Shown in pieces: positions 1,302 to 54,492 of a DNA stretch of 60,263 nucleotides. A program made the position numbers and the translations under genes. Each line of letters starts with the position of its first letter. Within the stretch, counting starts at the first letter, position 1. The notes below the pieces were generated by a model that was not told the origin of the DNA, did no database searches, and saw only the letters and a program-made list of their open reading frames with translations. Origin of the DNA: Candidatus Binataceae bacterium (GTDB taxonomy: Bacteria > Desulfobacterota > Binatia > Binatales > Binataceae); contig DASXMQ010000185.1 in NCBI GenBank assembly GCA_036495625.1, positions 1 to 60,263 of the forward strand, read 5' to 3'.

Positions 1302-2243
1302 CTAAGCCGCCTCGACCGGGTTTTCCAGCGCACCCAGGCCCTCGACCTCGACCCGCACGCGGTCGCCCGGCTTCATGAACACCGGCGGCTTGCGCGTGTA
1401 GCCGACCCCGGCCGGCGTACCGGTCGAGATCACGTCGCCCGGCTCGAGGGTGAAGACCTGCGAGAGGTACGAGACGACATGCTCGGTCTTGAAAATCAGG
1501 TTGCGCGTGTTCGAGTGCTGCATGCGCTGGCCGTTTAAGTAGAGCGAGATCTCTAGGTTGTGCGGATCGGAAATCTCGTCGCGCGTCACCAGGTACGGCC
1601 CCATCGGCGCGAAAGTGTCGAAGGTCTTGCCGATCATCCACTGCCCGGTCTTCATCTGGTAATCGCGGCAGCTCACGTCGTTCATGATCGTGTAGCCGGC
1701 CACGTACTCCATCGCGCGCGCGGGCGGAATATCGCGGCCGGCGCGCCCGATAATGAAGGCGAACTCGCCCTCGTAGTCGATCATCGAGGAGACTTTGGGA
1801 ATCCTGACCGCGTCGCCCGGCCCGATCACGCAGTTGGCGTACTTGGAGAAGAAGGTCGGAACATCGGGAATCTTGAAGCCGGCCTCTTCGGCGTGGTCGC
1901 GGTAATTGAGTCCCACCAGGATGAGCTTGGTCGGGCGCGGCACCGGCGCGCGCAACCGGACCGACTCGGCGCGGCGGGCAAGCCCGCGCTCGCGCGCGTC
2001 GTCGGCGCCAAGCCGCGCGACCAGCGCGAGCGCCTCCCGGGTGGCGTTCATCGCGCGCTCGCCGGCCTCGAGGAAGGCGACCATCTCGGGCGGCACGGCC
2101 TCGCGGGCAAGCTCGCCCGCGCGGCGCTCGCCGCGCTCCTCCATCAACGCGCGACAGGCCGCGTTGAGGTCAATTACGAAACCTTCGGCGACGGCGCCGA
2201 GGCGATGGAGTCGGGGCTCGTCCTCGAATGTGACCAGGCGCAT
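1302..2243 (-). CDS. Fumarylacetoacetate hydrolase (FAH) family protein
   Basis: ORF 1302..2360 trimmed to ATG 2243 (MRLVTFEDE, GGGAGAA SD). Motifs GLNYRDHAEE, DYEGEFAFIIGR, PGDVISTGTPAGVG. Confidence 0.85.
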   Translation of the reverse strand: MRLVTFEDEPRLHRLGAVAEGFVIDLNAACRALMEERGERRAGELAREAVPPEMVAFLEAGERAMNATREALALVARLGADDARERGLARRAESVRLRAPVPRPTKLILVGLNYRDHAEEAGFKIPDVPTFFSKYANCVIGPGDAVRIPKVSSMIDYEGEFAFIIGRAGRDIPPARAMEYVAGYTIMNDVSCRDYQMKTGQWMIGKTFDTFAPMGPYLVTRDEISDPHNLEISLYLNGQRMQHSNTRNLIFKTEHVVSYLSQVFTLEPGDVISTGTPAGVGYTRKPPVFMKPGDRVRVEVEGLGALENPVEAA

Positions 2244-2955: not shown

Positions 2956-4365
2956 GTGAGCATGCCGGGTGCTTATCTATATGCGCTGGCCGCGCAAGCT
3001 TCGAGCCTGTACTTCTCGCATGGCCCGTGCCTGCCGTGCAGCGGATCGCTGTCCTGGCCGGACGCGGCCGGTGCGATATCGGCGCTTGCCGCGGCAACCG
3101 GTCTGGTCGTGCTGATGCCGTTGATGCCAAGAGCGTTTGCGTCTGCGATCGGCAGGAGACTCGCAGATAGGAACCGCGAGCTCGAACCGGAGGTCGCCGA
3201 GCGCAAGCGGGCCGAGATCATTTTCCGAGGCTTATTGGAATCGGCGCCGGACGCGATGGTGATCGTGGATGCGAAAGGAAACATCGCGTTGGTGAACGAA
3301 CAGACCGAGAGACTGTTCGGCTATCAGCGCGAGGAAATGGTCGGTAAGCCGATGGAGTTGCTGATGCCGGAGCGCTTTCGCGGACGCCACGTAAGCGAGC
3401 GCATGAACTACGTCAAGGAGCCCCGGGCGCGGGCGATGGGCAGCGGGCTCGAGCTGTTCGGCCGGCGCAAGGACGGCAGCGAATTTCCGGTCGAAATCAG
3501 CCTGTGTCCGCTGCGCACCGATGAAGGGATGCTGATCTCGAGCGCCATCCGCGACACTTCGGATCGCAAGCGCGTACAGATCGAACTGGCGCGGGCGCGC
3601 GACGAGGCCCTGGAGGGGTCGAGGCTCAAGTCGGTCTTCGTGGCCAACATGTCGCACGAATTGCGCACTCCGCTTAACGGCATTATCGGTTTCAGCCAGT
3701 TGCTATACGCCGGACACATTGCGCCGGGCTCGGCCGAATACAAACAGAGCCTTGGCGATATCCTCTCCAGCGCGCGCCACCTGCTAAGCGTCATCAACAA
3801 CGTGCTCGACCTCGCCAAGGTCGAATCGGGCAAGATGGAATTCGTGCCCGAGCCGATCGATCCTGCGCTGGTGGTCGAAGAAGTACGCAGCGTGCTCCGC
3901 GGCGTGGCCGCGCAAAAGAACATCCGGGTCGACGCGGAAGTCGCGCTGGATATCGGCGATGTCGTTCTCGATTCAGGAAAGCTGCGGCAGGTCCTGTACA
4001 ACTATCTTTCGAATGCGATCAAGTTCAGCGGCGATGGCGCGCACGTCGCGATCCGGATGCGCCCCGAGGGCGAGGCGTGGCTGCGCCTCGAGGTCGAGGA
4101 CAGTGGCGAAGGTATCCGCGCCGAAGATTTGCCGAGGCTATTCACCGAGTTCCATCAACTCGATTCCTCCTCCAGCAAACGGCATCAGGGCACCGGCCTC
4201 GGCCTCGCGCTGACGCGGCAGATCGTCGAGGCGCAGGGCGGCACGGTCGGGGTGTCGAGCGAGCACAGGAAGGGCAGTATCTTCTGGGCGGTGCTACCGC
4301 GCCGCTACCCGGCGCGCGACGGTAACGGGCCGCAGAGGGTCCCAAACGCAAGCCTTCGTCATTGA
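2956..4365 (+). CDS. PAS-domain sensor histidine kinase (orphan)
   Basis: PAS segment ESAPDAMVIVDAKGNIALVNEQTERLFGY..GRRKDGSEFPVEISL. H-box FVANMSHELRTPLNGIIG. ATPase boxes NYLSNAIKF, EDSGEGI, GTGLGLAL. Hydrophobic N-terminus. Start is GTG 2956 or ATG 2962. No adjacent response regulator. Confidence 0.85.
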   Translation: MSMPGAYLYALAAQASSLYFSHGPCLPCSGSLSWPDAAGAISALAAATGLVVLMPLMPRAFASAIGRRLADRNRELEPEVAERKRAEIIFRGLLESAPDAMVIVDAKGNIALVNEQTERLFGYQREEMVGKPMELLMPERFRGRHVSERMNYVKEPRARAMGSGLELFGRRKDGSEFPVEISLCPLRTDEGMLISSAIRDTSDRKRVQIELARARDEALEGSRLKSVFVANMSHELRTPLNGIIGFSQLLYAGHIAPGSAEYKQSLGDILSSARHLLSVINNVLDLAKVESGKMEFVPEPIDPALVVEEVRSVLRGVAAQKNIRVDAEVALDIGDVVLDSGKLRQVLYNYLSNAIKFSGDGAHVAIRMRPEGEAWLRLEVEDSGEGIRAEDLPRLFTEFHQLDSSSSKRHQGTGLGLALTRQIVEAQGGTVGVSSEHRKGSIFWAVLPRRYPARDGNGPQRVPNASLRH

Positions 4366-15681: not shown

Positions 15682-15742
15682 AGTCCGCAAAAATTTGCGT
15701 GTATTAGACCAGATTGCGCGAAATGAGCGAGGAATAGACTAA

Positions 15743-16093
15743 ATGAAGCGGGCGCGCCTTCTCTGGAAGTCCACCTGAACCACCTGCCGAAACGCAAGAG
15801 GTTTCTTGCGTGACGAACTTCGGGTGGAGCTCGACGAGCGCGACTATGCGAAAGAGCCGCTCAGCCCCTCCGAGCTGAAGACGCTGTTTGCGGGCCGCGA
15901 TCCGCGCGATTTCCTCAATCCGAAGAGCCCGGTGTTCAAAGCGATGGGGCTGAAGGACAGGAAGTTGACGGCGGCAGAGACCCTGGCGCTGATGGCGAGG
16001 GAGCCGAACCTTATCAAGCGCCCGCTGGTGGTGGCGGGCGGCGAGATCGTGGCTGGTTTCGATCGCGAACGTCTGCGGGGGCTGCTGTCGTAG
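15743..16093 (+). CDS. ArsC/Spx/YffB-family thiol-oxidoreductase-like protein with in-frame TGA (probable selenocysteine, UxxC)
   Basis: ATG 15743 (GAGGA 9 nt upstream). Reads MKRARLLWKST-TGA(15776..15778)-TTCRNARGFLRDE..LIKRPLVVAGGEIVAGF. The tracked ORF (15806..16093) is the same frame. The TGA aligns with the first Cys of CxxC in YffB (NCDTCKKARRWL) and Spx (SCTSCRKARAWL). Confidence 0.7.
15793..15810 (+). promoter_or_regulatory. SECIS-like stem-loop (selenocysteine insertion signal candidate)
   Basis: CGCAAGA-GGUU-UCUUGCG: perfect 7 bp, plus an A-U extension. It starts 14 nt after the TGA. The apical loop starts with GGU, 21 nt after the UGA. Confidence 0.6.
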
Positions 16094-16129: not shown

Positions 16130-17203
16130 TTATGCGCGTTCGGCCCGTTCGGCCTTCTCTACGCGTTCGGGTTTTTCGCCTTTGTCGGCCCTGTCCGACT
16201 TGTCTGACTTGTCTGATCGATCTGATCTATCCTGACGCTCGGATTTATCTGGACGCTCGACGCGAGCTTCGCTGCGGCCGTTGCCGCCATCGCCCTTGTC
16301 GGCACGCGTGCCGGGCGACTGAATCTTGGCCGAAGTCAGGACCTCGACGAATTTCCGCACTGCCGGCGAAAGTTCGCGCCCGCGCTTGTAGATGATCGCG
16401 AGCGGCCGCGTGAACGTGCCTTCGGCAAACTCGAGCATCTTGAGCGAGCCGCGAGTGGTTTCGTGTTCGACCGTCGATAACGGCACGATCGCCACGCCCT
16501 GCCCGATTTCAACCGCGCGCTTGATGGTTTCGATGTTGTCGAACTCCATCGTGTATTGCGGCTTAACGCCATGCTCGCGCAGGATGCGGTCCGACGCTTT
16601 GCGGGTTGCGATGTCCCGCTCGTAGCCGACGAATTTCAGGCCGGCGAGCGCACTCACGCTGACCTTGTTGAGCTTGGCCAGCGGGTCATCGGGCGGCACT
16701 ACCAGCACCAGTTCGTCGTAGCGGAAGGCGATGGTAACGATCTGGCTGCGCTTGGCTGGATAGGCCACCACGCCGAGGTCGATCTTACCCTCGACCAGGT
16801 CCTCATAGATCTTATTGGAGCGCAGGTACTCCAGATGCACGTTCACTTGGGGATAGCTGCGCAGAAATTCGGTCAGGTAGGGCGGAAGTTCATGCAATCC
16901 GACGCTGTAAACAGTGCCTACGCGAATCGATCCTGCCACAACCGACCCGATCTCGCGCAGCCGGTTCTCCAGTTCCATGAACCGGCGCACGATTTCCTTG
17001 CTCGAGTTGTACAGAATCTGCCCGGCCGGAGTCGGTTTGACACCCGCGCGCGCCCGCTCTAACAATCGACACTCGTACTTTTCCTCCAGACTGCGGACCT
17101 GCTGGCTGACCGCCGACTGGGTAACGAAGTTTTGTGAAGCGGCATAAGAAACGCTTCCGCTCTCGATGATGTCGCAAAAGACTTTCAGTGTCTCGATGTG
17201 CAT
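16130..17203 (-). CDS. LysR-family transcriptional regulator (GcdR-like by position) with repetitive charged C-terminal tail
   Basis: wHTH MHIETLKVFCDIIESGSVSYAASQNFVTQSAVSQQVRSLEEKY plus a LysR substrate domain. Divergent from the glutaryl-CoA dehydrogenase gene. Tail ..ERQDRSDRSDKSDKSDRADKGEKPERVEKAERAERA. Confidence 0.85.
   Translation of the reverse strand: MHIETLKVFCDIIESGSVSYAASQNFVTQSAVSQQVRSLEEKYECRLLERARAGVKPTPAGQILYNSSKEIVRRFMELENRLREIGSVVAGSIRVGTVYSVGLHELPPYLTEFLRSYPQVNVHLEYLRSNKIYEDLVEGKIDLGVVAYPAKRSQIVTIAFRYDELVLVVPPDDPLAKLNKVSVSALAGLKFVGYERDIATRKASDRILREHGVKPQYTMEFDNIETIKRAVEIGQGVAIVPLSTVEHETTRGSLKMLEFAEGTFTRPLAIIYKRGRELSPAVRKFVEVLTSAKIQSPGTRADKGDGGNGRSEARVERPDKSERQDRSDRSDKSDKSDRADKGEKPERVEKAERAERA
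16136..16237. repeat. In-frame 9-bp tandem repeats encoding the LysR tail
   Basis: cgttcggcc x2 (16137..16154). Five 9-bp units gtccgactt/gtctgactt/gtctgatcg/atctgatct/atcctgacg (16193..16237). Confidence 0.8.
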
Positions 17204-36751: not shown

Positions 36752-36950
36752 GTTAGAGAATTCCCTCCAGGCCAGTGGTTGCCCCTACAAAACCTTCGGC
36801 TGCATTTTACCTCAAAGCTCGAAATTGGCGGCATCCGGAACGCACCGGACAGGGGGATATTTATTCGGCCAAGTGTGGCCCGCGGCGTGAACGGAGTGAT
36901 GCCGCGGCCCGAACCACGCCGGCCCTTGGCGACGGCATTTATTTCGTTTC

Positions 36951-37964
36951 ATGGACACCAATTTGACGAAGCATAAGATTAAGGAATTGCGCGCCCTGGT
37001 GACGGAAGGCGACCGGGTGGCGATCCTGCTGCAGGACGATCCGGATCCGGACGCGATGTCGAGCGCGATTGCGCTACGCACGCTTTTGGGCCGCAACAAG
37101 CTCACCACGCCGATCTTCAGCTTCACTCCGGTCACGCGGCCGGAGAACAAGACCATGATGCATCTGCTCGAGATCGAGATCGCGCCGGCCGACACCGAGG
37201 AACTGGCGGCCTTCGACCGGGTCGCGATGGTCGACGTGCAGCCGCCCTACTTCAACGGGCGGCTGCGCCGGGCTGACATCGTGATCGACCATCATCCGGG
37301 TTACGCGCCGAATAATGCCGCCTTTCAGGACGTGCGTCCCGGCTATGGCGCCACCGCGACCATCATGACCGAGTACCTGGTCGCCGCCGACGAACGCATC
37401 AGCGAGCGCCTGGCCACCGCGCTGCTCTACGGCATCCGCAGCGACACGCTGATGCTCAAGCGGCGCGTTACCGACAACGACATCTACGCCTTCACCCAGC
37501 TTTACCCGCACGCCAACTACAACCTGCTGCGCCAGATCGACCGGCCCGAGCTGCCGACGCGCTTCGCGCGCGTGCTGGCGCGCGTGATGCGCCGGTTCAA
37601 GGTCGACGACGGCATTGCAGTGCTGCATCTGGGCCGCGTCGAACGCGACGATCTGATCGTGCAGATGGCGGACTTCTGCCTGCAGTTCGAGGGCGTGGAG
37701 TGGGTGGTGGTGTCGGGCAAACTCGAGAACAACCTGGTGATCGCGGTGCGCAACCACGGGATCGGCCGGAGCAACGCGGGCGAGGTCGTGCGCAAATTGT
37801 TCGGCGAGATGGGCAGCGCCGGCGGACATCGCAACATGTCCAAGGCCGTGATCGCGCTCAAGGACTGGCGCGCCAGCGAAGGCACCGTGCGCGACGCCGA
37901 TATCGAAACTCGCCTGCGCGAGATGTTCAAGGCGCAAATCAGCGGCGACAACGACGACGACTGA
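36951..37964 (+). CDS. DHH/DHHA1 family phosphoesterase (NrnA-like)
   Basis: DPDPDAMSSAIAL, VMVDV, IVIDHHPG (DHH), GSAGGHRNMSKA (DHHA1 GGH). Confidence 0.8.
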   Translation: MDTNLTKHKIKELRALVTEGDRVAILLQDDPDPDAMSSAIALRTLLGRNKLTTPIFSFTPVTRPENKTMMHLLEIEIAPADTEELAAFDRVAMVDVQPPYFNGRLRRADIVIDHHPGYAPNNAAFQDVRPGYGATATIMTEYLVAADERISERLATALLYGIRSDTLMLKRRVTDNDIYAFTQLYPHANYNLLRQIDRPELPTRFARVLARVMRRFKVDDGIAVLHLGRVERDDLIVQMADFCLQFEGVEWVVVSGKLENNLVIAVRNHGIGRSNAGEVVRKLFGEMGSAGGHRNMSKAVIALKDWRASEGTVRDADIETRLREMFKAQISGDNDDD

Positions 37965-38066
37965 CCGGGCCTGGTCCCGCGTTCGCATCCGCCCGCTTCC
38001 GCGGTTGCTGATAACCCCGCAGGCGCGCGGTTTACCGCATGGGCGCCAGCGTCTATCGTGAAGAGG

Positions 38067-38339
38067 ATGAGCGTGCTCGAGGAGACAGTGGAGGTGACCA
38101 ATCGGCTCGGGCTTCATCTGCGCGCCGCCACCAAGCTCGCCGAAACCGCGCGCCGCTTCCAGGCGAAAGTTACGATCATCGGCACAGACGGGCAGGCCGA
38201 CGCGCGCAGCGTGATCAACCTGATGATGCTCGGCGCGGCGCAGGGCGCGCGCCTAAAGGTGCGCGCCGACGGCCCTGCTGCGCGCGCCGCGCTCGAAGCG
38301 GTGGAGCGCCTCTTCCAGGACCGGTTTGGCGAAGACTGA
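38067..38339 (+). CDS. HPr-family phosphocarrier protein (NPr-like)
   Basis: MSVLEETVEVTNRLGLHLRAATKLAE (active His) and ADARSVINLMMLG (regulatory Ser context). Resembles recalled NPr [23 protein letters not shown]. ORF 38058..38339 trimmed to ATG 38067. Confidence 0.85.
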   Translation: MSVLEETVEVTNRLGLHLRAATKLAETARRFQAKVTIIGTDGQADARSVINLMMLGAAQGARLKVRADGPAARAALEAVERLFQDRFGED

Positions 38340-38678: not shown

Positions 38679-39866
38679 ATGCCGCTCAAGGACTTTCTCT
38701 TCACCTCGGAATCGGTCGCCGAAGGCCATCCCGACAAGATGTGCGATAAGATTTCAGACGCGGTGCTCGACGCGCTCATCGCCGAGGACCCCAACTCCCG
38801 CGTGGCGCTGGAATCGCTGGTTAAAACCGGGCTCATCGTGCTGGCCGGCGAGATCACCAGCCACGCGCATCCGGACTTCGTCCGCATCGCGCGCGATACT
38901 GCGCTCGAAATCGGCTACAACCACATCGACACCGGCTTCGACGGCAACAATTGCGCCGTGCTGACCGCGATCGAGCCGCAATCGCTGGACATCTCGCAGG
39001 GCGTCACCGAGGGCGAGGGGCTGCATAAGGAGCAGGGCGCCGGCGATCAGGGGCTGATGTTCGGGTTTGCGTGCGATGAAACCCGGGAGCTGATGCCGCT
39101 GCCGATCGCGCTCGCCCATCGCCTGATGGAAAACCTCGCCACCCTGCGCCATCAGGGCAAGGCGGATTTCCTGCTCCCCGACGGCAAAAGCCAGGTCACG
39201 GTGCGCTACGCGGGCGGACGCCCGGTTGAGGTCACCACCGTGGTGGTCTCGACGCAGCATCGGCGCGATGTCGGCCATGCGACCGTGCGTGAAGCGGTTA
39301 TCGACGAACTGATCAAGCCGACCATCCCCAAGCAGTTCCTGACCAAGGACACCGTCATCCACGTCAACCCCACCGGCACCTTCGTGGTCGGCGGCCCGCA
39401 TGGCGATTGCGGCCTCACCGGCCGCAAGATCATCGTGGACACCTACGGCGGCTACGGGCGCCACGGCGGCGGCGCGTTCTCGGGCAAGGATCCGAGCAAG
39501 GTCGATCGCTCGGCCTGCTATATGGCGCGTTACGTGGCCAAGAACGTGGTGGCGGCGGGGTTGGCGAGCCGCTGCGAAATCCAGGTGGCGTATGCGATCG
39601 GCGTGGCCGAGCCGGTTTCGATCCTGATCGACACTTTCGACACCGGCACGGTGCCGGACCAGAAACTGGCCTCGGCGCTGCGCGAACTCTTCGATTTCCG
39701 CCCCGCCGGGATCATCAAGACGCTCGGGCTGAAGCGGCCGATTTACAAAGCCACCGCCGCCTACGGCCACTTCGGCCGCACGCCGCACAACGGGCTCTTT
39801 CCCTGGGAGCAGACCGACATGGTCGACGCGCTGCGCAACGCGTTCGGGCGCGACGGCGCCCGCTGA
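38679..39866 (+). CDS. metK: S-adenosylmethionine synthetase
   Basis: [82 protein letters not shown]. Confidence 0.95.
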
Positions 39867-39977
39867 CCGGCAGACGGTTCGCCGACCAGCCGCGGATCGC
39901 GATCCGCAAATAACACCCTGGGACGCGCGGGCGCACTCGCGCATGCGCTCCCTTCAAAATCCGGAGAGAGGATTCAG

Positions 39978-41291
39978 ATGGAGGCGAAAACCAGCAAGCG
40001 CAAACTCATGTCCGCCGCGGCGCGCGCCGGACGCGCCCTGCCCCACGACGTCCACGACCTCGACCTTGCCGAGGCCGGACGGCGCAGGATCGAATGGGCC
40101 GACGAACAGATGCCGGTGCTGCGGATCATCCGCGAGCGCTTCGCCAAGGACAAGCCGCTTGCCGGCCAGCGCCTCAGCGCCTGCCTGCACATCACCACCG
40201 AGACCGCCAATCTGTTGCGCACGCTCAAGGCCGGCGGCGCCGAGGTGCTGTGCTGCGCCTCCAACCCGCTTTCGACCCAGGACGACGTCGCCGCCGCGCT
40301 GGTCAAGGAATACGGCATCCCGGCCTACGCCGTGCACGCCGAGGATCGCGACACCTACTACAGCCACCTGCGCGCCGTGCTCGAGGCCCATCCGACGATC
40401 ACGATGGACGACGGCGCCGACCTGGTGAGCCTTCTGCACACCGATTTTAACGATCACGCCGCCGAAGTGCGGGCCTCGATGGAAGAGACCACAACCGGCG
40501 TCATCCGTCTGCGCGCGATGGAGCAGGACCGCGCGCTGCGCATCCCGGTGGTCGCGGTCAACGACGCGCAGACCAAGTATCTGTTCGACAACCGCTACGG
40601 CACCGGCCAATCGACGCTCGACGCGATCATCCGCGCAACCGGCGTGCTGGTCGCCGGTTCGGTGGTCGTGGTGGCGGGCTACGGATGGTGCGGGCGCGGC
40701 GTGGCGTCGCGCGCTCGAGGCCTTGGCGCCAACGTGATCGTGACCGAGGTCAACCCGATCCGCGCGCTGGAAGCGGCGCTCGACGGCTTCCAGCTGATGC
40801 GGATGGCGGAAGCGGCGCGCGTTGGCGACATCTTCATCACGGTAACCGGCGACCGGCAGATCCTCGCCCAGAGCCACATGATCGTGATGAAGGACGGCGC
40901 GATCATCTGCAACTCGGGCCACTTCGACGTCGAGATCGACCTGCCAGGGCTGCGCAAGCTCGCGCGCCGTGTCGATCGCCACCCCGAGCGCGAAGTCGAG
41001 ACGTTCCATCTGCGCAACGGGCGCAAGCTCTATCTGCTCGGCCAGGGGCGCCTGGTTAACCTCGCCTGCGCCGGCGGCCATCCCGCCCAGGTGATGGACA
41101 TGAGCTTCGCCACGCAGGCGATGGCCGCGGCATGGGCATCGGACGCGCAGCTCGAGGTCAAGGTGCATAACGTGCCGCTCGCGATCGAGGACGAAGTCGC
41201 GAGCATGAAGCTCGCCGCGATGGGAATCAAAATCGACCGGCTGTCGGCCGAGCAGAAGAAATACCTGGCGAGTTGGCAGAGCGGCACCTGA
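39978..41291 (+). CDS. ahcY: Adenosylhomocysteinase
   Basis: LHITTETANL, ASNPLSTQDDVAAAL, EETTTGV, NDAQTKYLFDNRYGTGQS, VAGYGWCGRGVA, NSGHFDVEID, GHPAQVMDMSF. Confidence 0.95.
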   Translation: MEAKTSKRKLMSAAARAGRALPHDVHDLDLAEAGRRRIEWADEQMPVLRIIRERFAKDKPLAGQRLSACLHITTETANLLRTLKAGGAEVLCCASNPLSTQDDVAAALVKEYGIPAYAVHAEDRDTYYSHLRAVLEAHPTITMDDGADLVSLLHTDFNDHAAEVRASMEETTTGVIRLRAMEQDRALRIPVVAVNDAQTKYLFDNRYGTGQSTLDAIIRATGVLVAGSVVVVAGYGWCGRGVASRARGLGANVIVTEVNPIRALEAALDGFQLMRMAEAARVGDIFITVTGDRQILAQSHMIVMKDGAIICNSGHFDVEIDLPGLRKLARRVDRHPEREVETFHLRNGRKLYLLGQGRLVNLACAGGHPAQVMDMSFATQAMAAAWASDAQLEVKVHNVPLAIEDEVASMKLAAMGIKIDRLSAEQKKYLASWQSGT

Positions 41292-45250: not shown

Positions 45251-46285
45251 TCAGCGCGCGATGTCGTTGTGGCGCACCTGGACGGTCACGCCCTTTTTGC
45301 CGAGGCGGCGCGCGAGCTCGAGCGCGAGCGTGGGCGAACGATGCCGCCCGCCGGTGCATCCAAGCCCGATGGTCAGGTAGCTCTTGCCCTCGCGCCGGTA
45401 GAGCGGCACCAGGAAGCCGAGCAGGTGCGCGGTTTCCGTGATGAAGCGCCGCGCCTCCGAATGCCTCATCACGTAGGCGCGCACCCGCTTATCCGTTCCG
45501 TCAAGCGGCCTTAAGCCGGGCACGAAAAACGGATTCGGCAGGAAGCGTACGTCGAGCACGAGATCCATCCCGACCGGAATCCCGTACTTGTAGCCGAACG
45601 AGACCAGCGCGATCGTCATCGCCGAGCCGCTCGCCGCGCCCAGCACCGAACCGGTGATGACCTCGCGCAATTCGTGCACGCTCAGCGCGGTGGTGTCGAT
45701 CACGCGGTCGGCGCGCTCGTGCATCTCGGCCAGGGCGAGGCGCTCGCTGCGGATACTTTCGGCGACCGAGGCGCCGCTTTCAGCCATCGGATGCGGTCGG
45801 CGGGTCTCCGAGTAGCGCCGCACCAGGACCTCGTCGGCGGCGTCGAGGAAGATCACTTCGGGACGATAGCCGGCGCGCTCGAGATCGCTGAAAAAGCGCG
45901 GCCACTGCGGAAAGAATAGCCGCTCGCGCGAATCGATCCCGAGCGCCACGCCCGCGAGCTCCGGGTCGCGTCGGGTCGCAAGCCGCAGCGCCGATTCGGC
46001 AAGCGCCACCGGCATGTTGTCCACGCAATAGAAACCCAGATCCTCGAGCACGCGCATCGCGGACGCTCGCCCCGATCCCGAAACGCCGGTGACGATGATG
46101 AGACGCGGGGCGCGGCGGGCCTTCCCGGAGGCTGGGGGCCTGGCCGACTTGCCAGTACCTGATTTGGCCGGGGCTTTGCGCGAGGACTTGCGCGGGCCTG
46201 GAGATTTTTCCGACTTGTCCGATACGGCCGTCGCGCGCGCCTTGTGCGGGCGCGCCCGCCGTCGTGGGGCCATCGCAGGGTCCAA
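45251..46285 (-). CDS. rapZ: RNase adapter protein RapZ (YhbJ) with about 59-aa basic N-terminal extension
   Basis: LIIVTGVSGSGRASAMRVLEDLGFYCVDNMP..FLDA..RRYSETRRPHP..VSFGYKYG..DVRFLPNPF..IGCTGGRHRS. Position after ptsN as in the canonical rpoN operon. Confidence 0.85.
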   Translation of the reverse strand: MDPAMAPRRRARPHKARATAVSDKSEKSPGPRKSSRKAPAKSGTGKSARPPASGKARRAPRLIIVTGVSGSGRASAMRVLEDLGFYCVDNMPVALAESALRLATRRDPELAGVALGIDSRERLFFPQWPRFFSDLERAGYRPEVIFLDAADEVLVRRYSETRRPHPMAESGASVAESIRSERLALAEMHERADRVIDTTALSVHELREVITGSVLGAASGSAMTIALVSFGYKYGIPVGMDLVLDVRFLPNPFFVPGLRPLDGTDKRVRAYVMRHSEARRFITETAHLLGFLVPLYRREGKSYLTIGLGCTGGRHRSPTLALELARRLGKKGVTVQVRHNDIAR

Positions 46286-46306
46286 GGCGCTCCGGCGCGT
46301 GCTGCC

Positions 46307-46768
46307 TCAGTGCCGGGCGTCTTCCTCCTTGATGAGGCGGAAGATTTCGGCTGCGTCGGGCGCGGCGGTCAGCCGTTCGCGAAACGCCGGGTCCTTCATC
46401 AGGCGCGAGACGCGCGCGAGGGCCTTCAGATGGAGGCTCGCCGAATCCTCGGGCGCGAGCAGCAGGAAGAACAGATGCGTGGAGCCGCCGTCGAGCGAGT
46501 CGAAGTCCACGCCGTGTTGATGGCGGCCGAAGACGCCGATGATGCTGTTGACGCCGGCAAGCTTGCCATGGGGGATCGCGATACCATCGCCGATCGCGGT
46601 CGAGCCGAGCCGCTCGCGCTCGGCCAGCACCGCCGACAGCGCCGCGGGATCGATCTCGCGATGCTTGTTCGCAAGGTAGTCCGACAGCTCGTGCAGGACC
46701 TCGGGTTTGGTGCTGCCCTTGAGCTCGGGCAACACCATATCAGGACTCAGAATATCGGTAATTTTCAT
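46307..46768 (-). CDS. ptsN: PTS IIA-like nitrogen regulatory protein PtsN
   Basis: RERLGSTAIGDGIAIPHGKL (active His), HLFFLLLAP. Position between hpf and rapZ. Confidence 0.85.
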   Translation of the reverse strand: MKITDILSPDMVLPELKGSTKPEVLHELSDYLANKHREIDPAALSAVLAERERLGSTAIGDGIAIPHGKLAGVNSIIGVFGRHQHGVDFDSLDGGSTHLFFLLLAPEDSASLHLKALARVSRLMKDPAFRERLTAAPDAAEIFRLIKEEDARH

Positions 46769-46886
46769 TGCTTGCTCAGCGTACCCCGATTATTGCATCG
46801 AAAAGCGGGCGAGGGCGAGTGCAGCGCGGGACGCAAAAGCGCCGCTTGGCGCGCGATTTCTTTTTACGCAAGCCCCCTGGTCCCGC

Positions 46887-47333
46887 CTACGAGCGCGAAT
46901 CGCTTTCCGCCTCCTCGACCGCGCTCAAAACCTCGCCCGCCGACGGGGAACGCCATTTCCGGGCTTCGATTTTCTCCAGATGTTTTTTGAGTTGACGCGC
47001 GACCTTGTCCGCGAGCAGGTCGATGACCGAGTAGAGATCCTTGGTCTCTTCCTGTGCGGCGACCACCGCCAAGCGGCCCGATTTTACCGTTACCTCGCCG
47101 CATTGGCGGTACTTATCAACCGAGAGGATCAAGTGCACCGTGCAGGGACGCTTGAGCGTCTGGGCCACGTGGCCGAGCTTGCGCTCCGCGTAGAGTCGAA
47201 TCGGCTCGGTCGGCTCGACGTGGCGAAAGGTCACGGAGACTTCGGCTGCGGGCCTGGCCTTGAGCTTCGCGCGGCGGCGCTGCTTCTGTTCGGCTCTTCC
47301 GTTGCGCTTTCGCGTGGGCTCTTTCGTCGCCAT
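46887..47333 (-). CDS. hpf: Ribosome hibernation promoting factor (HPF/RaiA family) with basic N-terminal extension
   Basis: VSVTFRHVEPTEPIRLYAERKLGHV..VHLILSVDKYRQCGEVTV..DLYSVIDLLADKVARQLKKH. ATG 47333 preferred; GTG 47396 possible. Confidence 0.8.
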   Translation of the reverse strand: MATKEPTRKRNGRAEQKQRRRAKLKARPAAEVSVTFRHVEPTEPIRLYAERKLGHVAQTLKRPCTVHLILSVDKYRQCGEVTVKSGRLAVVAAQEETKDLYSVIDLLADKVARQLKKHLEKIEARKWRSPSAGEVLSAVEEAESDSRS

Positions 47334-47418
47334 TTGAACTACCTCTCTCTGCCTCTTCGGCGCGCGCCTTTCGCCGGCGGCCGCTCGCTCGCGCACTCTG
47401 TGCCGACGAAGGAGATGT

Positions 47419-48987
47419 TCAACCCACCTTCTTGCGCCGCGCCGAGGGCAGGATGCCTAGCGCCTGGCGGTACTTGGCCACCGTGCGCCGCGCGATATTG
47501 ATCTGGTCGCGGCGCAGAAATTCGGCGATCGCCTGGTCCGACAACGGGTCGTGCGTCTGCTCGAGCGCGACCATCGCGCGGATCTTCTCCTTGACGGTCT
47601 CCGCGCTCACGTCCTCGCCGCTGGTGCCTTTGACGCCCGAGGTGAAGAAGAACTTCATCTCGAAGATGCCCTGCTGGGTGTGCGCGTACTTGTTGGCGGT
47701 GGCGCGGCTGATGGTCGATTCGTGCATCCCGATGTCCTCGGCCACGTCCTTGAGCACCAGCGGGCGGAGGTGCGTGATGCCGTGGTCGAAGAACGCGCGC
47801 TGGAACTTCACGATCGAGGTGGCGACCTTGAAGATCGTCTGCTGGCGCTGGTAAATCGATTTCACCAGCCATCGCGCCGACCGCAGCCGCTCTTGCAGAT
47901 ATTCCTTGGTGTCGGCGGCGACCGCGCTGTCGCTCAATACGCGCTGGTAATATCCGGCAAGCCGCAGCCGCGGCACCGCGCCCTCGTTGAGCAGCACCAC
48001 GTAGTCATTGCCCATCTTGTGGATGAAAACGTCCGGCACGATATAGGCCGGCTCCTGGCCGCCGTAGTCGCGTCCCGGCTTGGGCTCGAGCAGCGAGATT
48101 ACCTTGGCCGCCTGCCCGACCGTCTCGACGGAAACGCCGAGCGAGCGCGCGATCTCGGCATAGCGATGCTTCTCGAGCAGATCGAGATGGTTGAGCACGA
48201 TCCGTGCGGCCAGCGACTCTTCCATCCCGATATTGGCCAGCTGCTGGTAGAGGCACTCGCGCAGGTCGCGCGCCGCCACGCCGGGGGGATCGAAGCGCTG
48301 CACGCGCTTGAGCACGCGCTCAACCATGGCCGCGTCGGTCTCGAGCTGAACCGCAAGGTCCTCGATCGGCGTTTCCAGATAGCCGTCGTCGTTGAGGTTG
48401 TAGATGATGGTCGCGCCGACGATCTGCTCGTTCTGATCCAGCGCGGACATCCGCAACTGCCACATCAGATGATCTTCGATCGAAGTGCGCCGGGTGAGCG
48501 TGTTCTCCAGCGTCTGGCGGTGTTCGTCGTCCGGTTCGGACTCCTGGTTGTCCTGCCAGTTGTTGGAATAGTTCTCGAGATATTCGCGCCAGTCGAGCTT
48601 GTCGAGACGGCCATCCTCCTTGATCTCGGTCGCGGCGTCGCCCGCTTCGCTCGTCATCCCCTCAACCGCCGGCGGTTCGTCGCCGTTGCCGTTCCACTCA
48701 GGCTCGGCCGGCGCCGCCCCGAGCTCGGGCTCGGGCGGCAACAAGTCGGGCTCGGAGCCGGGCGTCGTATCCGGCGTCGCCGCCATCCCGTCGTCGGCCG
48801 CGGTCGCGGTGGGGCTGCGCTCCTCGACCATCTCGAGCAGCGGATTTGATTCAAGTTCGTTCTGGACGACGACTTCCAGCTCGGGCAGAGACAGCTGCAG
48901 GATCTTGATCGCCTGCTGGAGCTGCGGCGTCATCACCAGCTGCTGCCGCAGCCTGAGGTCTTGTCCTAGTTTGAGTTCAGGCGCCAT
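47419..48987 (-). CDS. rpoN: RNA polymerase sigma-54 factor
   Basis: Region I LRLRQQLVMTPQLQQAIKILQLSLPEL. HTH DVAEDIGMHESTISRAT. RpoN box ARRTVAKYR. Confidence 0.95.
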   Translation of the reverse strand: MAPELKLGQDLRLRQQLVMTPQLQQAIKILQLSLPELEVVVQNELESNPLLEMVEERSPTATAADDGMAATPDTTPGSEPDLLPPEPELGAAPAEPEWNGNGDEPPAVEGMTSEAGDAATEIKEDGRLDKLDWREYLENYSNNWQDNQESEPDDEHRQTLENTLTRRTSIEDHLMWQLRMSALDQNEQIVGATIIYNLNDDGYLETPIEDLAVQLETDAAMVERVLKRVQRFDPPGVAARDLRECLYQQLANIGMEESLAARIVLNHLDLLEKHRYAEIARSLGVSVETVGQAAKVISLLEPKPGRDYGGQEPAYIVPDVFIHKMGNDYVVLLNEGAVPRLRLAGYYQRVLSDSAVAADTKEYLQERLRSARWLVKSIYQRQQTIFKVATSIVKFQRAFFDHGITHLRPLVLKDVAEDIGMHESTISRATANKYAHTQQGIFEMKFFFTSGVKGTSGEDVSAETVKEKIRAMVALEQTHDPLSDQAIAEFLRRDQINIARRTVAKYRQALGILPSARRKKVG

Positions 48988-49002
48988 ATCGATCGCCGCT
49001 GA

Positions 49003-50133
49003 CTAAGGCGACTTCGCGACGGTCGTCTTATTATCACGGGTTTTCTGGTCCTTAGGGAAGAACACCGCGCGCGCTCCCTCGACCTCGCTCTTGCCGGTGT
49101 CAAGATGCACCGTGATTTTGCTCCCGGTAACCTGATCCTCGCCATCGTGGACCACCGGGCTGCCGGTAAGTGTCACCGTATGCTTGGCCTGGTCGAGCAC
49201 CGCGTGATCCCCGGTCGCCCATCGCGTGCCCTGGCTCATGCGCACGTTGTTGTTGGCGACCATCTCTTTGACCTCGTGAAAATCCTTGCCGTAGAAAACG
49301 GTCAAGGTGTCGCTGGTCAGAGTTGCGTCGGCTTGCGTGGCGTGGACGTGGCCGCGAAAAGTCACGATGTTGCCCTTGTAGTCGAGATCGAGCGCATCCG
49401 ACTTGATATCGATCGGGCCCTTGTTGCCCGAGAATTGAAGCGACGAAAAGGGGCCATTCTGGCTGTCGCCCTGTGAGGTTGCTTTCGCGTCCTTGGAGTC
49501 CGCTTTGGTGTCCTTGGATGCGGTCTGCAACGGAGCCGATTGTTGCGCGCCTTTGGAATTCGCGTGGCGTGGCGTCTGGCCCTTACCGGCGGCTTTCGCC
49601 TTCGCCCTGGCTTTCATCTCTGCGCCGGGCGTCGCGAGAGCCGCCGGCGCGCTGACGCTCTCGGCCGTTCCCGGCATCGCAGGAGCCGGTGTCGGTGCGG
49701 CGGTCTCTCCCGACGACACTACGCCCGCGGGCGCGGACGCCGCCGCCGCTCCGCCGGCGACGCCGGCGCCGGCTGGCGCCGCGACGTCGCCGTCAGCGTT
49801 GATTCCGCCCGCCGCGGGCGGCGCCGATGCCGGCGCCGCGCTTGGCGCGCCATCCGCAGACGCCGAGCCGCCGCCCGTGGCGGCGGCCTGTGTCTTGCGG
49901 ATGCTCGCGCCCGGAAGCACTGCACCCGGGCTTGCGGTGGCGGCCGCAGCCGCCGCCGCGGCGTCCGGGGCGGGCGAGGCGCTTTGCGCGAGCGCGCCCA
50001 AAGGCGCGCCCGCGCAAAGCGCCAGCACGAGGGCCGTTCCAACTATCAACGCGCGAGGCGCCGCGGCGGCGCGGCCGAGCCGCCGCCGCGCCGCGCGAGA
50101 CGCGCCGTTACGACTTGCCTGATTTGAGATCAC
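49003..50133 (-). CDS. lptA: LptA/OstA-family periplasmic LPS transport protein with long Ala/Pro/Gly/Ser linker
   Basis: Signal peptide (RALIVGTALVLALCAGAPLGALA). C-terminal OstA fold IDIKSDALDLDYKGNIVTFRGHVHATQADATLTSDTLTVFY..NNNVRM..TGDHAVLDQAKHTVTLTGSPVV. Position between lptC and rpoN. Confidence 0.7.
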   Translation of the reverse strand: MISNQASRNGASRAARRRLGRAAAAPRALIVGTALVLALCAGAPLGALAQSASPAPDAAAAAAAATASPGAVLPGASIRKTQAAATGGGSASADGAPSAAPASAPPAAGGINADGDVAAPAGAGVAGGAAAASAPAGVVSSGETAAPTPAPAMPGTAESVSAPAALATPGAEMKARAKAKAAGKGQTPRHANSKGAQQSAPLQTASKDTKADSKDAKATSQGDSQNGPFSSLQFSGNKGPIDIKSDALDLDYKGNIVTFRGHVHATQADATLTSDTLTVFYGKDFHEVKEMVANNNVRMSQGTRWATGDHAVLDQAKHTVTLTGSPVVHDGEDQVTGSKITVHLDTGKSEVEGARAVFFPKDQKTRDNKTTVAKSP

Positions 50134-51100: not shown

Positions 51101-53613
<2,513 letters not shown>

Positions 53614-54357
53614 TCAGCCGCCGAGCCGCCGTGCATGAGCGCGCGCCCGCGCGAGGTCCTCGGCAGTATCTACCTCAAGCGACGGCGCCACGGAAGCCAC
53701 TATCCTGATTCGAAAGCCGCGCTCGAGCGCGCGCAGTTGCTCGAGCTTCTCGAGCGCTTCGAGCACGCCCTGCTCAAGTTCGGCAAAACGCAGCAGGAAC
53801 TCGCGGCGATAGGCATAAACGCCGATATGGCGGCGCGCCGCGGAGGGCGGCGCGGCGCCGTCGCGCGGCCATGGAATCGGCGCGCGCGAAAAATACAGCG
53901 CGTCGCCGCCTCCGTCGCACACCACTTTCACCACATTCGGATCGCGCCACTCCTCGGCGTTCGCGATCGGCGTCGCCAGCGTCGCCATCGCGATATCCTT
54001 GTCGGCGCGCATCGGCGCGGCGAGGGCGTCGAGGTCGGCCGGATCGATAAACGGCAGGTCGCCCTGCACATTGATATAAATCGCGGCCGGCACCTTGGCC
54101 GCGACCTCGGCGATTCGATCGGTGCCGCTCTGATGCGCCGGCGAGGTCATCATCACCTCGCCGCCCGCATCGGCAACCGCGCGCGCGATGCGCTCGTCGT
54201 CGGTCGCGACGATCACGCGATCGAGCGCGCGCGCCCCGGCCGCCTGACGCCACACCCGCACGACCATCGGCAGCCCCTCGATTTCGGCGAGCGCCTTGCC
54301 CGGCAGCCGGGTCGAGGAAAAGCGCGCCGGGATGACGCCGACTATTCCATCGGCCAT
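53614..54357 (-). CDS. kdsB: 3-deoxy-manno-octulosonate cytidylyltransferase
   Basis: VIPARFSSTRLPGKAL, VIVATDDERI, SGTDRIAE, NVQGDLPF, YFSRAPIPW, HIGVYAYR. Confidence 0.9.
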   Translation of the reverse strand: MADGIVGVIPARFSSTRLPGKALAEIEGLPMVVRVWRQAAGARALDRVIVATDDERIARAVADAGGEVMMTSPAHQSGTDRIAEVAAKVPAAIYINVQGDLPFIDPADLDALAAPMRADKDIAMATLATPIANAEEWRDPNVVKVVCDGGGDALYFSRAPIPWPRDGAAPPSAARRHIGVYAYRREFLLRFAELEQGVLEALEKLEQLRALERGFRIRIVASVAPSLEVDTAEDLARARAHARRLGG

Positions 54358-54492
54358 CGAGGGAACTCCGCAGACGATGTACAGGAAACGGAAGACTCCG
54401 AACGCAACCGCACAATAATTAGTAGCTGGCGGCGGCCCACGATGTCAATTTCGCGCCTGGAAATTGCTCCACAAAGCAGTATTGGCGCCGGG

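Follow-up and report, generated by a model that had tools for sequence, protein, structure and literature searches.

A probable selenocysteine-containing ArsC/Spx-family protein in the Binataceae, with a hairpin linked to its UGA codon

Locus, reading frame, and predicted fold

The window analyzed here is a stretch of 60,263 nt from a Candidatus Binataceae bacterium. At the locus of interest (Table 1), the frame opened by ATG 15743 begins MKRARLLWKST, meets a TGA codon, continues as TTCRNARGFLRDE..., and closes with a TAG. The codons directly after the TGA are ACC ACC TGC, which would give a U-T-T-C motif (U12/C15) with UGA translated as selenocysteine (Sec). A hairpin starts 14 nt after the TGA, with its loop 21 nt after it. 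The original prediction, made from the sequence of the window, had placed the ATG, a GAGGA upstream of it, the TGA, and the hairpin core (15793..15810) at these positions and with these two spacings, all of which hold on re-reading.

Table 1. Features of the predicted selenoprotein gene and its surroundings. Positions are those of the window.
Feature	Position	Strand	Details	Basis
Shine-Dalgarno-like GAGGA	15729..15733	+	9 nt 5' of ATG 15743	Read directly
Full CDS of predicted 116-residue ArsC/Spx-family selenoprotein	15743..16093	+	ATG 15743, Sec codon 12, TAG 16091-16093	Translation, Pfam
UGA, predicted selenocysteine, residue 12, first position of UxxC	15776..15778	+		TGA versus TGC/TGT across loci, Spx alignment
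Possible lower stem	15780..15827	+	15780-15786 with 15821-15827, around the apical hairpin	RNAfold
TGC, Cys15, predicted resolving cysteine of UxxC	15785..15787	+		Invariant in all aligned full-length homologues
SECIS-like apical hairpin	15792..15811	+	8 bp; core stem CGCAAGA/UCUUGCG, 15793-15799 with 15804-15810; eighth pair A15792-U15811; loop GGUU 15800-15803	Fold, register, covariation, decay after Cys switch
AAGAGG inside the hairpin, mimicking a ribosome-binding site, plus TTG	15796..15808	+	AAGAGG 15796..15801; TTG 15806-15808, 4 nt on; source of mis-annotation	

An in-frame TAA (15740-15742) directly abuts the ATG, so no start farther upstream is possible, and a conservation boundary places the translation start at ATG 15743 itself. 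Among the window and 15 related Binataceae loci with TGA (16 sequences in all), every one of the 30 positions 5' of the ATG is variable. The 33 nt from ATG to TGA have no indels in the same 16 sequences, and always begin with ATG or GTG; their variable sites are distributed 8/6/2 over codon positions 3/1/2. This pattern shows coding constraint on the 11 codons 5' of the TGA, which is informative because the segment would be untranslated were the protein begun at TTG 15806. The N-terminus, MKxARFLWKST, and the position of the start are conserved in relatives. Purine-rich stretches are found at a similar place upstream in these, in a region that cannot be aligned with the GAGGA of the window. 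A promoter/terminator scan found no promoter-like site around the gene, and a single terminator-like match, on the minus strand at 15746-15759, which is within the number expected from shuffled sequences.

With U replaced by C, the 116-residue translation matches the Pfam ArsC family (PF03960) over residues 9-112 and scores 58.1 bits, where the cutoff is 24. Of the NCBIfam models, TIGR01617 (Spx/MgsR-like "arsC_related") scores highest, with 64.9 bits, under its cutoff of 75.05; TIGR00014 (true ArsC) gives 41.1 bits (cutoff 106.05) and NF041106 ("ArsC family (seleno)protein") 19.1 bits (cutoff 85), and the protein is under every cutoff of the Spx-specific NCBIfam models. Scores of nine relatives, with TGA or with Cys, lie at 19-40 bits for NF041106 and 40-80 bits for TIGR01617, whose cutoff only one of them (L044) passes; a true NF041106 member scores 112.5 bits with NF041106. 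The solved structures closest in sequence are both of Spx (3l78, 2.9e-11; 1z3e, 5.6e-10), with weaker matches to YffB (8e-7) and R773 ArsC (PDB 1i9d, about 7e-3).

AlphaFold was applied not to the window protein itself but to its nearest naturally occurring Cys orthologue (P0001, of the same length and with 83% identity), and gave a model with a pLDDT of 92.7. In this model residues 3-8 form strand beta1 and residues 13-25 helix alpha1, with residue 12 at the alpha1 N-cap, so that residue 12 would be where thioredoxin-fold proteins canonically have their redox-active residue. Foldseek comparison of the model to the PDB gave TM scores of 0.84 for Spx, 0.82 for YffB, and 0.68 for ArsC. Taking sequence matches and model together, the predicted product is a thioredoxin-fold protein of the ArsC/Spx superfamily.

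The TGA codon and the hairpin in related loci

Elsewhere in the window UGA is an ordinary stop codon: about half of the high-GC3 ORFs end in TGA, and it is therefore not reassigned genome-wide. A scan of species-representative genomes yielded 80 related loci, in which the codon aligned with the window TGA was read; it is TGA in 35 and TGC or TGT in 36. The TGA loci comprise 17 from Binataceae (those designated L001-L011, L014, L015, L019, L020, and L024 among them) and 18 from other lineages, including Terriglobia, "Acidiferrales," "Acidoferrales," Acidobacteriaceae, Polarisedimenticolia, a Chloroflexota MAG, and others. As had been predicted, the TGA stands at the first Cys of a CxxC motif: residue 12 aligns by HMMER with Cys10 of the Spx CxxC, and these 36 loci have a Cys codon at the same place.

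Within the Binataceae, the same neighborhood surrounds the gene whether its codon is TGA or TGC/TGT: a sigma factor, a CinA-like gene, a hypothetical secreted protein, the selenoprotein-locus gene, a LysR gene on the opposite strand to it, and an acyl-CoA dehydrogenase. The Sec and Cys loci of this family are therefore orthologues. In a neighbor-joining tree built from the region 3' of the motif only, Sec forms and Cys forms of the Binataceae fall into separate clades, and the Acidobacteriota have switched between Sec and Cys at least three more times.

A change from TGC or TGT to TGA takes only one base, and the locus might conceivably be a pseudogene or a sequencing artefact, a CxxC gene with a nonsense mutation. 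This is extremely improbable. Independent assemblies of 35 species-level genomes, spread over several phyla, have the TGA, as does an exactly matching contig from an unrelated run; the frame is intact on both sides of it, with variation biased to third positions; and it is accompanied by a dedicated, covarying hairpin. The argument first made from the window, that no random nonsense mutation would be expected here, is further borne out by the Cys codon in syntenic orthologues.

The hairpin exceeds what chance would give. The 60 nt of RNA beginning with the UGA have a predicted folding energy of -22.8 kcal/mol (RNAfold; z = -3.2), and none of 200 shuffled sequences was as stable. Perfect hairpins with a 7-bp stem and a 4-nt loop occur 28 times in the window (120 kb, counting both strands), two of them with a GGU or AGU loop, and the chance of finding such a hairpin in the SECIS range of a given TGA is about 0.5%, or about 0.04% if the loop motif is included. 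No Rfam family matched in the window at gathering thresholds. A possible lower stem around the apical hairpin is intact only in the closest relatives of the window; some Cys forms have part of it, and other Sec forms lack it. Being clade-specific and not Sec-specific, it was not counted as part of the SECIS element, and the argument does not need it.

Relatives were compared in a fixed register counted from the U of the UGA, with positions 18-24 paired to 29-35 and the loop at 25-28. All seven pairs are present in 29 of 34 TGA forms and in none of 36 Cys forms. Loops in the 34 TGA forms are GGUC (16), GGUU (12), and AGUU (4), so that 32 have GGUY or AGUU at 21 nt. Overall, 86% of alignment cells are paired, as against 27-57% when the register is slid. 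Four of the eight pairs change on both sides: pair 18-35, for example, is CG in 13 sequences, AU in 11, UA in two, and GC and GU in one each, and pairs 23-30 and 24-29 also switch. The observed covariation score was not reached in any of 500 shuffles.

Some of this pairing has another source: the conserved peptide A-R-x-F/L-L-R itself dictates part of the complementarity of the stem, and the Binataceae Cys forms have five or six of the seven pairs. What discriminates is thus not pairing alone but the choice among synonymous codons, the loop, and the covariation. In the stem, the Arg codon is AGA in 29/34 TGA forms versus 2/36 Cys forms, the Leu codon TTG in 30/34 versus 5/36, and the Ala codon GCA in 29/34 versus 5/36; in the loop, the Gly codon is GGU in 28/34 versus 0/36. 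These stem codons (AGA, TTG, GCA) are rare synonymous ones; the genome is 65% G+C.

Two kinds of Cys (TGT) form make a natural experiment. One, L084, encodes a protein 81% identical to that of the window and retains CGCAAGA-GGCU-UCUUGCG; in two others, L082 and L083, the region reads GCC CGA AGT TTC CTG, and the helix is gone through synonymous changes. Compared in sequence, these loci present a hairpin that decays in relatives switched to Cys. Among the TGA forms, one from Chloroflexota has, in the same place, an 8-bp hairpin of another sequence whose loop is GGC, and another (L046) is without the canonical hairpin. Across the aligned loci, then, hairpin and UGA occur together. The original prediction had proposed examining orthologues for Cys or TGA at this codon and for conservation and covariation of the hairpin; on both counts the comparison came out in its favor, with the TGA shared by loci of several phyla and, in the TGA forms, a conserved, covarying hairpin that is lost in the Cys forms. 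The collection, in which a single syntenic locus has both Sec clades and Cys clades, is a comparative data set on how SECIS elements inside coding sequences are kept or lost. One relative (L084) shows the locus shortly after a change from Sec to Cys, its hairpin still whole; in others the hairpin has decayed.

Annotation and decoding of the UGA codon

The ORF list for the window has only a 95-aa ORF, from TTG 15806, at this locus, and the same is true of the databases. A protein search returned 879 homologues of the window protein; of the best 120 clusters, 69 are exactly 95 aa long, truncated just as in the window and with 82-94% identity, and the remaining ones are 115-127 aa long with a CxxC. 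The 95-aa entries are named "arsenate reductase-like glutaredoxin family protein," and public databases hold the TGA-bearing selenoprotein clade only as such fragments. Mis-annotation by standard gene callers, anticipated from the window, is thus widespread, and the reading given here corrects a systematic error: 95-residue calls in place of a probable 116-residue selenoprotein, in at least 69 of the best 120 clusters.

The short calls might instead be correct, with the TGA a true stop after an 11-residue leader, re-initiation at TTG 15806 to give the 95-aa protein, and the hairpin a translational regulator. The AAGAGG stands 4 nt before that TTG, and gene callers choose the TTG model everywhere. 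We nevertheless consider this very unlikely. Judging from the Cys-orthologue model, the 95-aa product would be without residues 1-21, and with them would lose strand beta1, the redox motif, and the greater part of helix alpha1; the ArsC fold would not form. The 11 codons upstream of the TGA and the nine between TGA and TTG match the N-terminus of the full-length Cys forms residue for residue, and the Cys orthologues make the full 116 aa from the same start. Both the TTG and the AAGAGG, moreover, are sequestered within the stem.

The reading that best accommodates these observations, to which we assign a probability of about 0.88, is that the gene at 15743-16093 encodes an ArsC/Spx-family selenoprotein, with UGA decoded as Sec by way of the hairpin, and that the product is a thiol-disulfide-type oxidoreductase or redox sensor. 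Translation begins at ATG 15743 and would not terminate at UGA 15776, the hairpin with its GGUU loop serving as a bacterial SECIS element. By analogy with the established bacterial mechanism, the hairpin would recruit SelB-GTP-Sec-tRNA(Sec), and Sec would be inserted. As fold and motif suggest, the U12/C15 selenol/thiol pair at the N-terminus of alpha1 could then cycle through a selenenylsulfide, and the protein may serve either in thiol-disulfide-type oxidoreduction or in redox sensing of the Spx/YffB type. A Sec-containing ArsC/Spx-family protein is what had been proposed from the window, and the TGA found across phyla and the covarying hairpin tied to it both support that proposal.

Motifs of SelA, SelB, and SelD were absent from the 60-kb window and from the 6-kb flanks of related loci (about 490 kb), and ARAGORN found no tRNA-Sec in the window or in 48 loci; the window is without any tRNA. 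Since 60 kb is too small a sample of a genome, this absence does not count against Sec decoding. Nor did the window contain further selenoprotein genes in a screen for UGA plus hairpin, which apart from 15776 gave only off-frame matches; the same screen of the fetched flanks gave nothing credible. One of these off-frame matches, at 49795 on the minus strand, lies within an LptA-like gene and was rejected. So were four pairs of same-frame ORFs joined by a TGA, which are adjacent housekeeping genes (DHH and HPr, MetK and AhcY, PtsN and RapZ, and KdsB and PyrG).

The UGA could also be recoded as something other than Sec, whether by a near-cognate tRNA (Cys or Trp) stimulated by the hairpin or by a tRNA that resembles tRNA-Sec and carries Cys, yielding CxxC or WxxC. 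A Cys at residue 12 is clearly functional in the orthologues, and no Sec machinery was seen within the window and flanks, as this would allow. It is quite unlikely all the same: the hairpin position and GGUY loop are as in SelB-dependent SECIS elements, from comparison with the real fdhF element; the same architecture is present in Acidobacteriota relatives, a group with documented Sec decoding; a published TIGR01617-type selenoprotein shares the UTTC..ARG signature; and a mechanism yielding Cys would be no better than a TGC codon, yet whole clades keep the TGA.

Decoding as Sec would imply that many Binataceae, abundant soil bacteria known only from MAGs, use this amino acid. For Acidobacteria and Chloroflexi, both groups with related TGA forms, Sec decoding has been documented; in the literature no paper was found that links Binatota with selenocysteine or selenium, and the gene may be the first marker of a Sec-decoding trait in this phylum.

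Comparison with known systems

ArsC-like selenoproteins were reported in 2006 from Desulfotalea and Desulfuromonas (PMC1794560). The GOS study distinguished "arsenate reductase 1," with UxxS, from "arsenate reductase 2" (cd03032 ArsC_Spx), with UxxC (PMC2398784), and reviews of 2022 and 2026 (PMC13188914) list both ArsC types, mapped to TIGR00014 and NF041106. In deep-Sep Data S1 (PMC12013277), the "Arsenate reductase" of Cloacibacillus porcorum is listed as a known selenoprotein with the motif UTTCQRARGWL. ArsC-type UxxC selenoproteins are thus an established class, and the locus described here represents neither a new mechanism nor a new selenoprotein class.

At the RNA level, the nearest comparison is with the E. 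coli fdhF SECIS, a stem-loop directly 3' of an in-frame UGA (codon 140). A likeness to fdhF in geometry and loop content was part of the original prediction, and it stands: both loops are of 4 nt, GGUC in fdhF and GGUU in the window, and the loop begins 18 nt after the UGA in fdhF and 21 nt after it in the window, one codon farther. The stem sequences are unrelated, however, and the upper stem in the window is without a predicted bulged U.

The glutaredoxin-coupled arsenate reductases (TIGR00014; R773 ArsC, 1i9d) have the same fold, and the predicted Sec of the window protein is at the position of their catalytic Cys12, but the selenoprotein form of ArsC has UxxS where the window protein has UxxC. 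No ars (arsenic-resistance) genes are found among the neighbors of the locus (sigma factor, CinA-like, LysR, and acyl-CoA dehydrogenase genes).

Spx, as in Bacillus subtilis and streptococci (1z3e, 3l78), is a regulator with a CxxC redox switch that binds the alpha-CTD of RNA polymerase. Its redox motif is at the same position as that of the window protein, and a K/R-R-P motif near the C-terminus is common to the two. Identity is only about 20-30%, however; Spx has 131 residues to the 116 of the window protein, which is without its C-terminal extension; and Gly52 of Spx, a residue important for alpha-CTD binding, aligns by HMMER with a Pro. With Spx the closest relative by sequence and by fold, and a sigma-factor gene in the conserved neighborhood, the protein could be imagined as a Sec-containing, Spx-like redox sensor that binds RNA polymerase, with a selenenylsulfide switch instead of a disulfide. 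We consider this unlikely: the scores are below the Spx-family cutoffs, and the C-terminal tail is missing. RNA polymerase binding of the Spx type is not known outside the Firmicutes.

Among selenoproteins, those of NF041106 ("arsenate reductase-like protein, UxxC") likewise belong to the ArsC superfamily, carry Sec first in UxxC, and are about 110-116 aa long, but with only 21% identity and a score far under the cutoff, the window protein belongs to a different subfamily. The Cloacibacillus porcorum selenoprotein resembles it more: it is from the same superfamily, has the same U-T-T-C and the same best NCBIfam model, and is 117 aa long (versus 116), with 35% identity by BLASTP (E 2e-18). It differs in having R-A-R-G after the motif in place of N-A-R-G, and in passing TIGR01617, with 111.9 bits, where the window protein does not. 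The hosts differ as well, Cloacibacillus porcorum being an anaerobic isolate of the Synergistota, and the window clade consisting of MAGs of soil Binataceae and Acidobacteriota. The NCBI curated models for ArsC-type selenoproteins, NF041106 and TIGR00014, miss this clade, and its scores with NF041106 and TIGR01617 mark it as divergent and uncaptured by curated selenoprotein models. By sequence comparison, the Binataceae/Acidobacteriota clade is related to the UxxC selenoproteins of the TIGR01617 type but divergent from them.

Sequence context and hairpin of the UGA codon

The two bases directly 3' of the UGA are A and C (TGAAC) in more than 90% of the TGA forms (columns 4-5 of alignment A1, in which related loci are aligned from the TGA/Cys codon onward; window 15779-15780), a pattern that may reflect a preferred context for Sec decoding. 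The codon 3' of the UGA site is altered in the two recently converted Cys forms; in L082 and L083, Cys loci near the window's Sec clade, it has gone from Thr to Ser in both, by different Ser codons (AGC and TCC). The hairpin has disappeared from these two loci via synonymous changes, and is almost intact, with a GGCU loop, in a third nearby Cys form, L084.

Among the TGA forms, that of a Chloroflexota MAG (L067:3031-3090) bears a hairpin of its own kind, 8 bp long with GGC in the loop. The in-frame TGA of a Polarisedimenticolia MAG (L046:1038-1097) is accompanied by a weak 4-bp stem only, without the canonical hairpin, and this locus may have a different SECIS or be a decaying gene.

In each of the MAGs CAVYTJ01 (L002 and L006) and CAVZFW01 (L019 and L020), the complete locus occurs twice in nearly identical form, on separate contigs; the cause may be a mixture of strains within the bin or a true duplication.

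Gene calls and look-alikes

Within the hairpin, 4 nt upstream of TTG 15806, is the sequence AAGAGG; it and the TTG together span window 15796-15808. The resemblance of AAGAGG to a ribosome-binding site is probably why gene callers everywhere begin the 95-aa fragment at this TTG; of the 120 best-matching clusters in the databases, 69 are this fragment by our own count.

Four selenoprotein look-alikes from a stop-to-stop scan were rejected: each is a pair of ordinary neighbouring genes in the same frame, with a TGA alone between them.

Features of the window and of nearby Cys loci
Feature	Source	Position	Strand	Remarks
LysR-type regulator	window	16130-17203	-	convergent with selenoprotein gene
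DHH + HPr	window	36900-38339		TGA-joined pair
MetK + AhcY	window	38679-41291		TGA-joined pair
PtsN + RapZ	window	45251-46789	-	TGA-joined pair
rpoN-ptsN-rapZ cluster (probable)	window	45251-49002	-	LptA/OstA-like gene upstream
LptA/OstA-like protein	window	49003-50133	-	unusually long (~200 residues) Ala/Pro-rich N-terminal region
KdsB + PyrG	window	51934-54444	-	TGA-joined pair
L084	Logan SRR28211854	889-1239		Cys (TGT), very near window's Sec clade
L082	JGI	3001-3351		Cys (TGT), very near window's Sec clade
L083	JGI	1474-1824		Cys (TGT), very near window's Sec clade

The neighbouring LysR-type regulator

The LysR-type regulator has a terminal tail of low complexity (..RSDRSDKSDKSDRADKGEKPERVEKAERAERA); the DNA that codes for this tail is made of short tandem repeats (CTGTC/CGACTTGTCTGA...; window 16130-16235).
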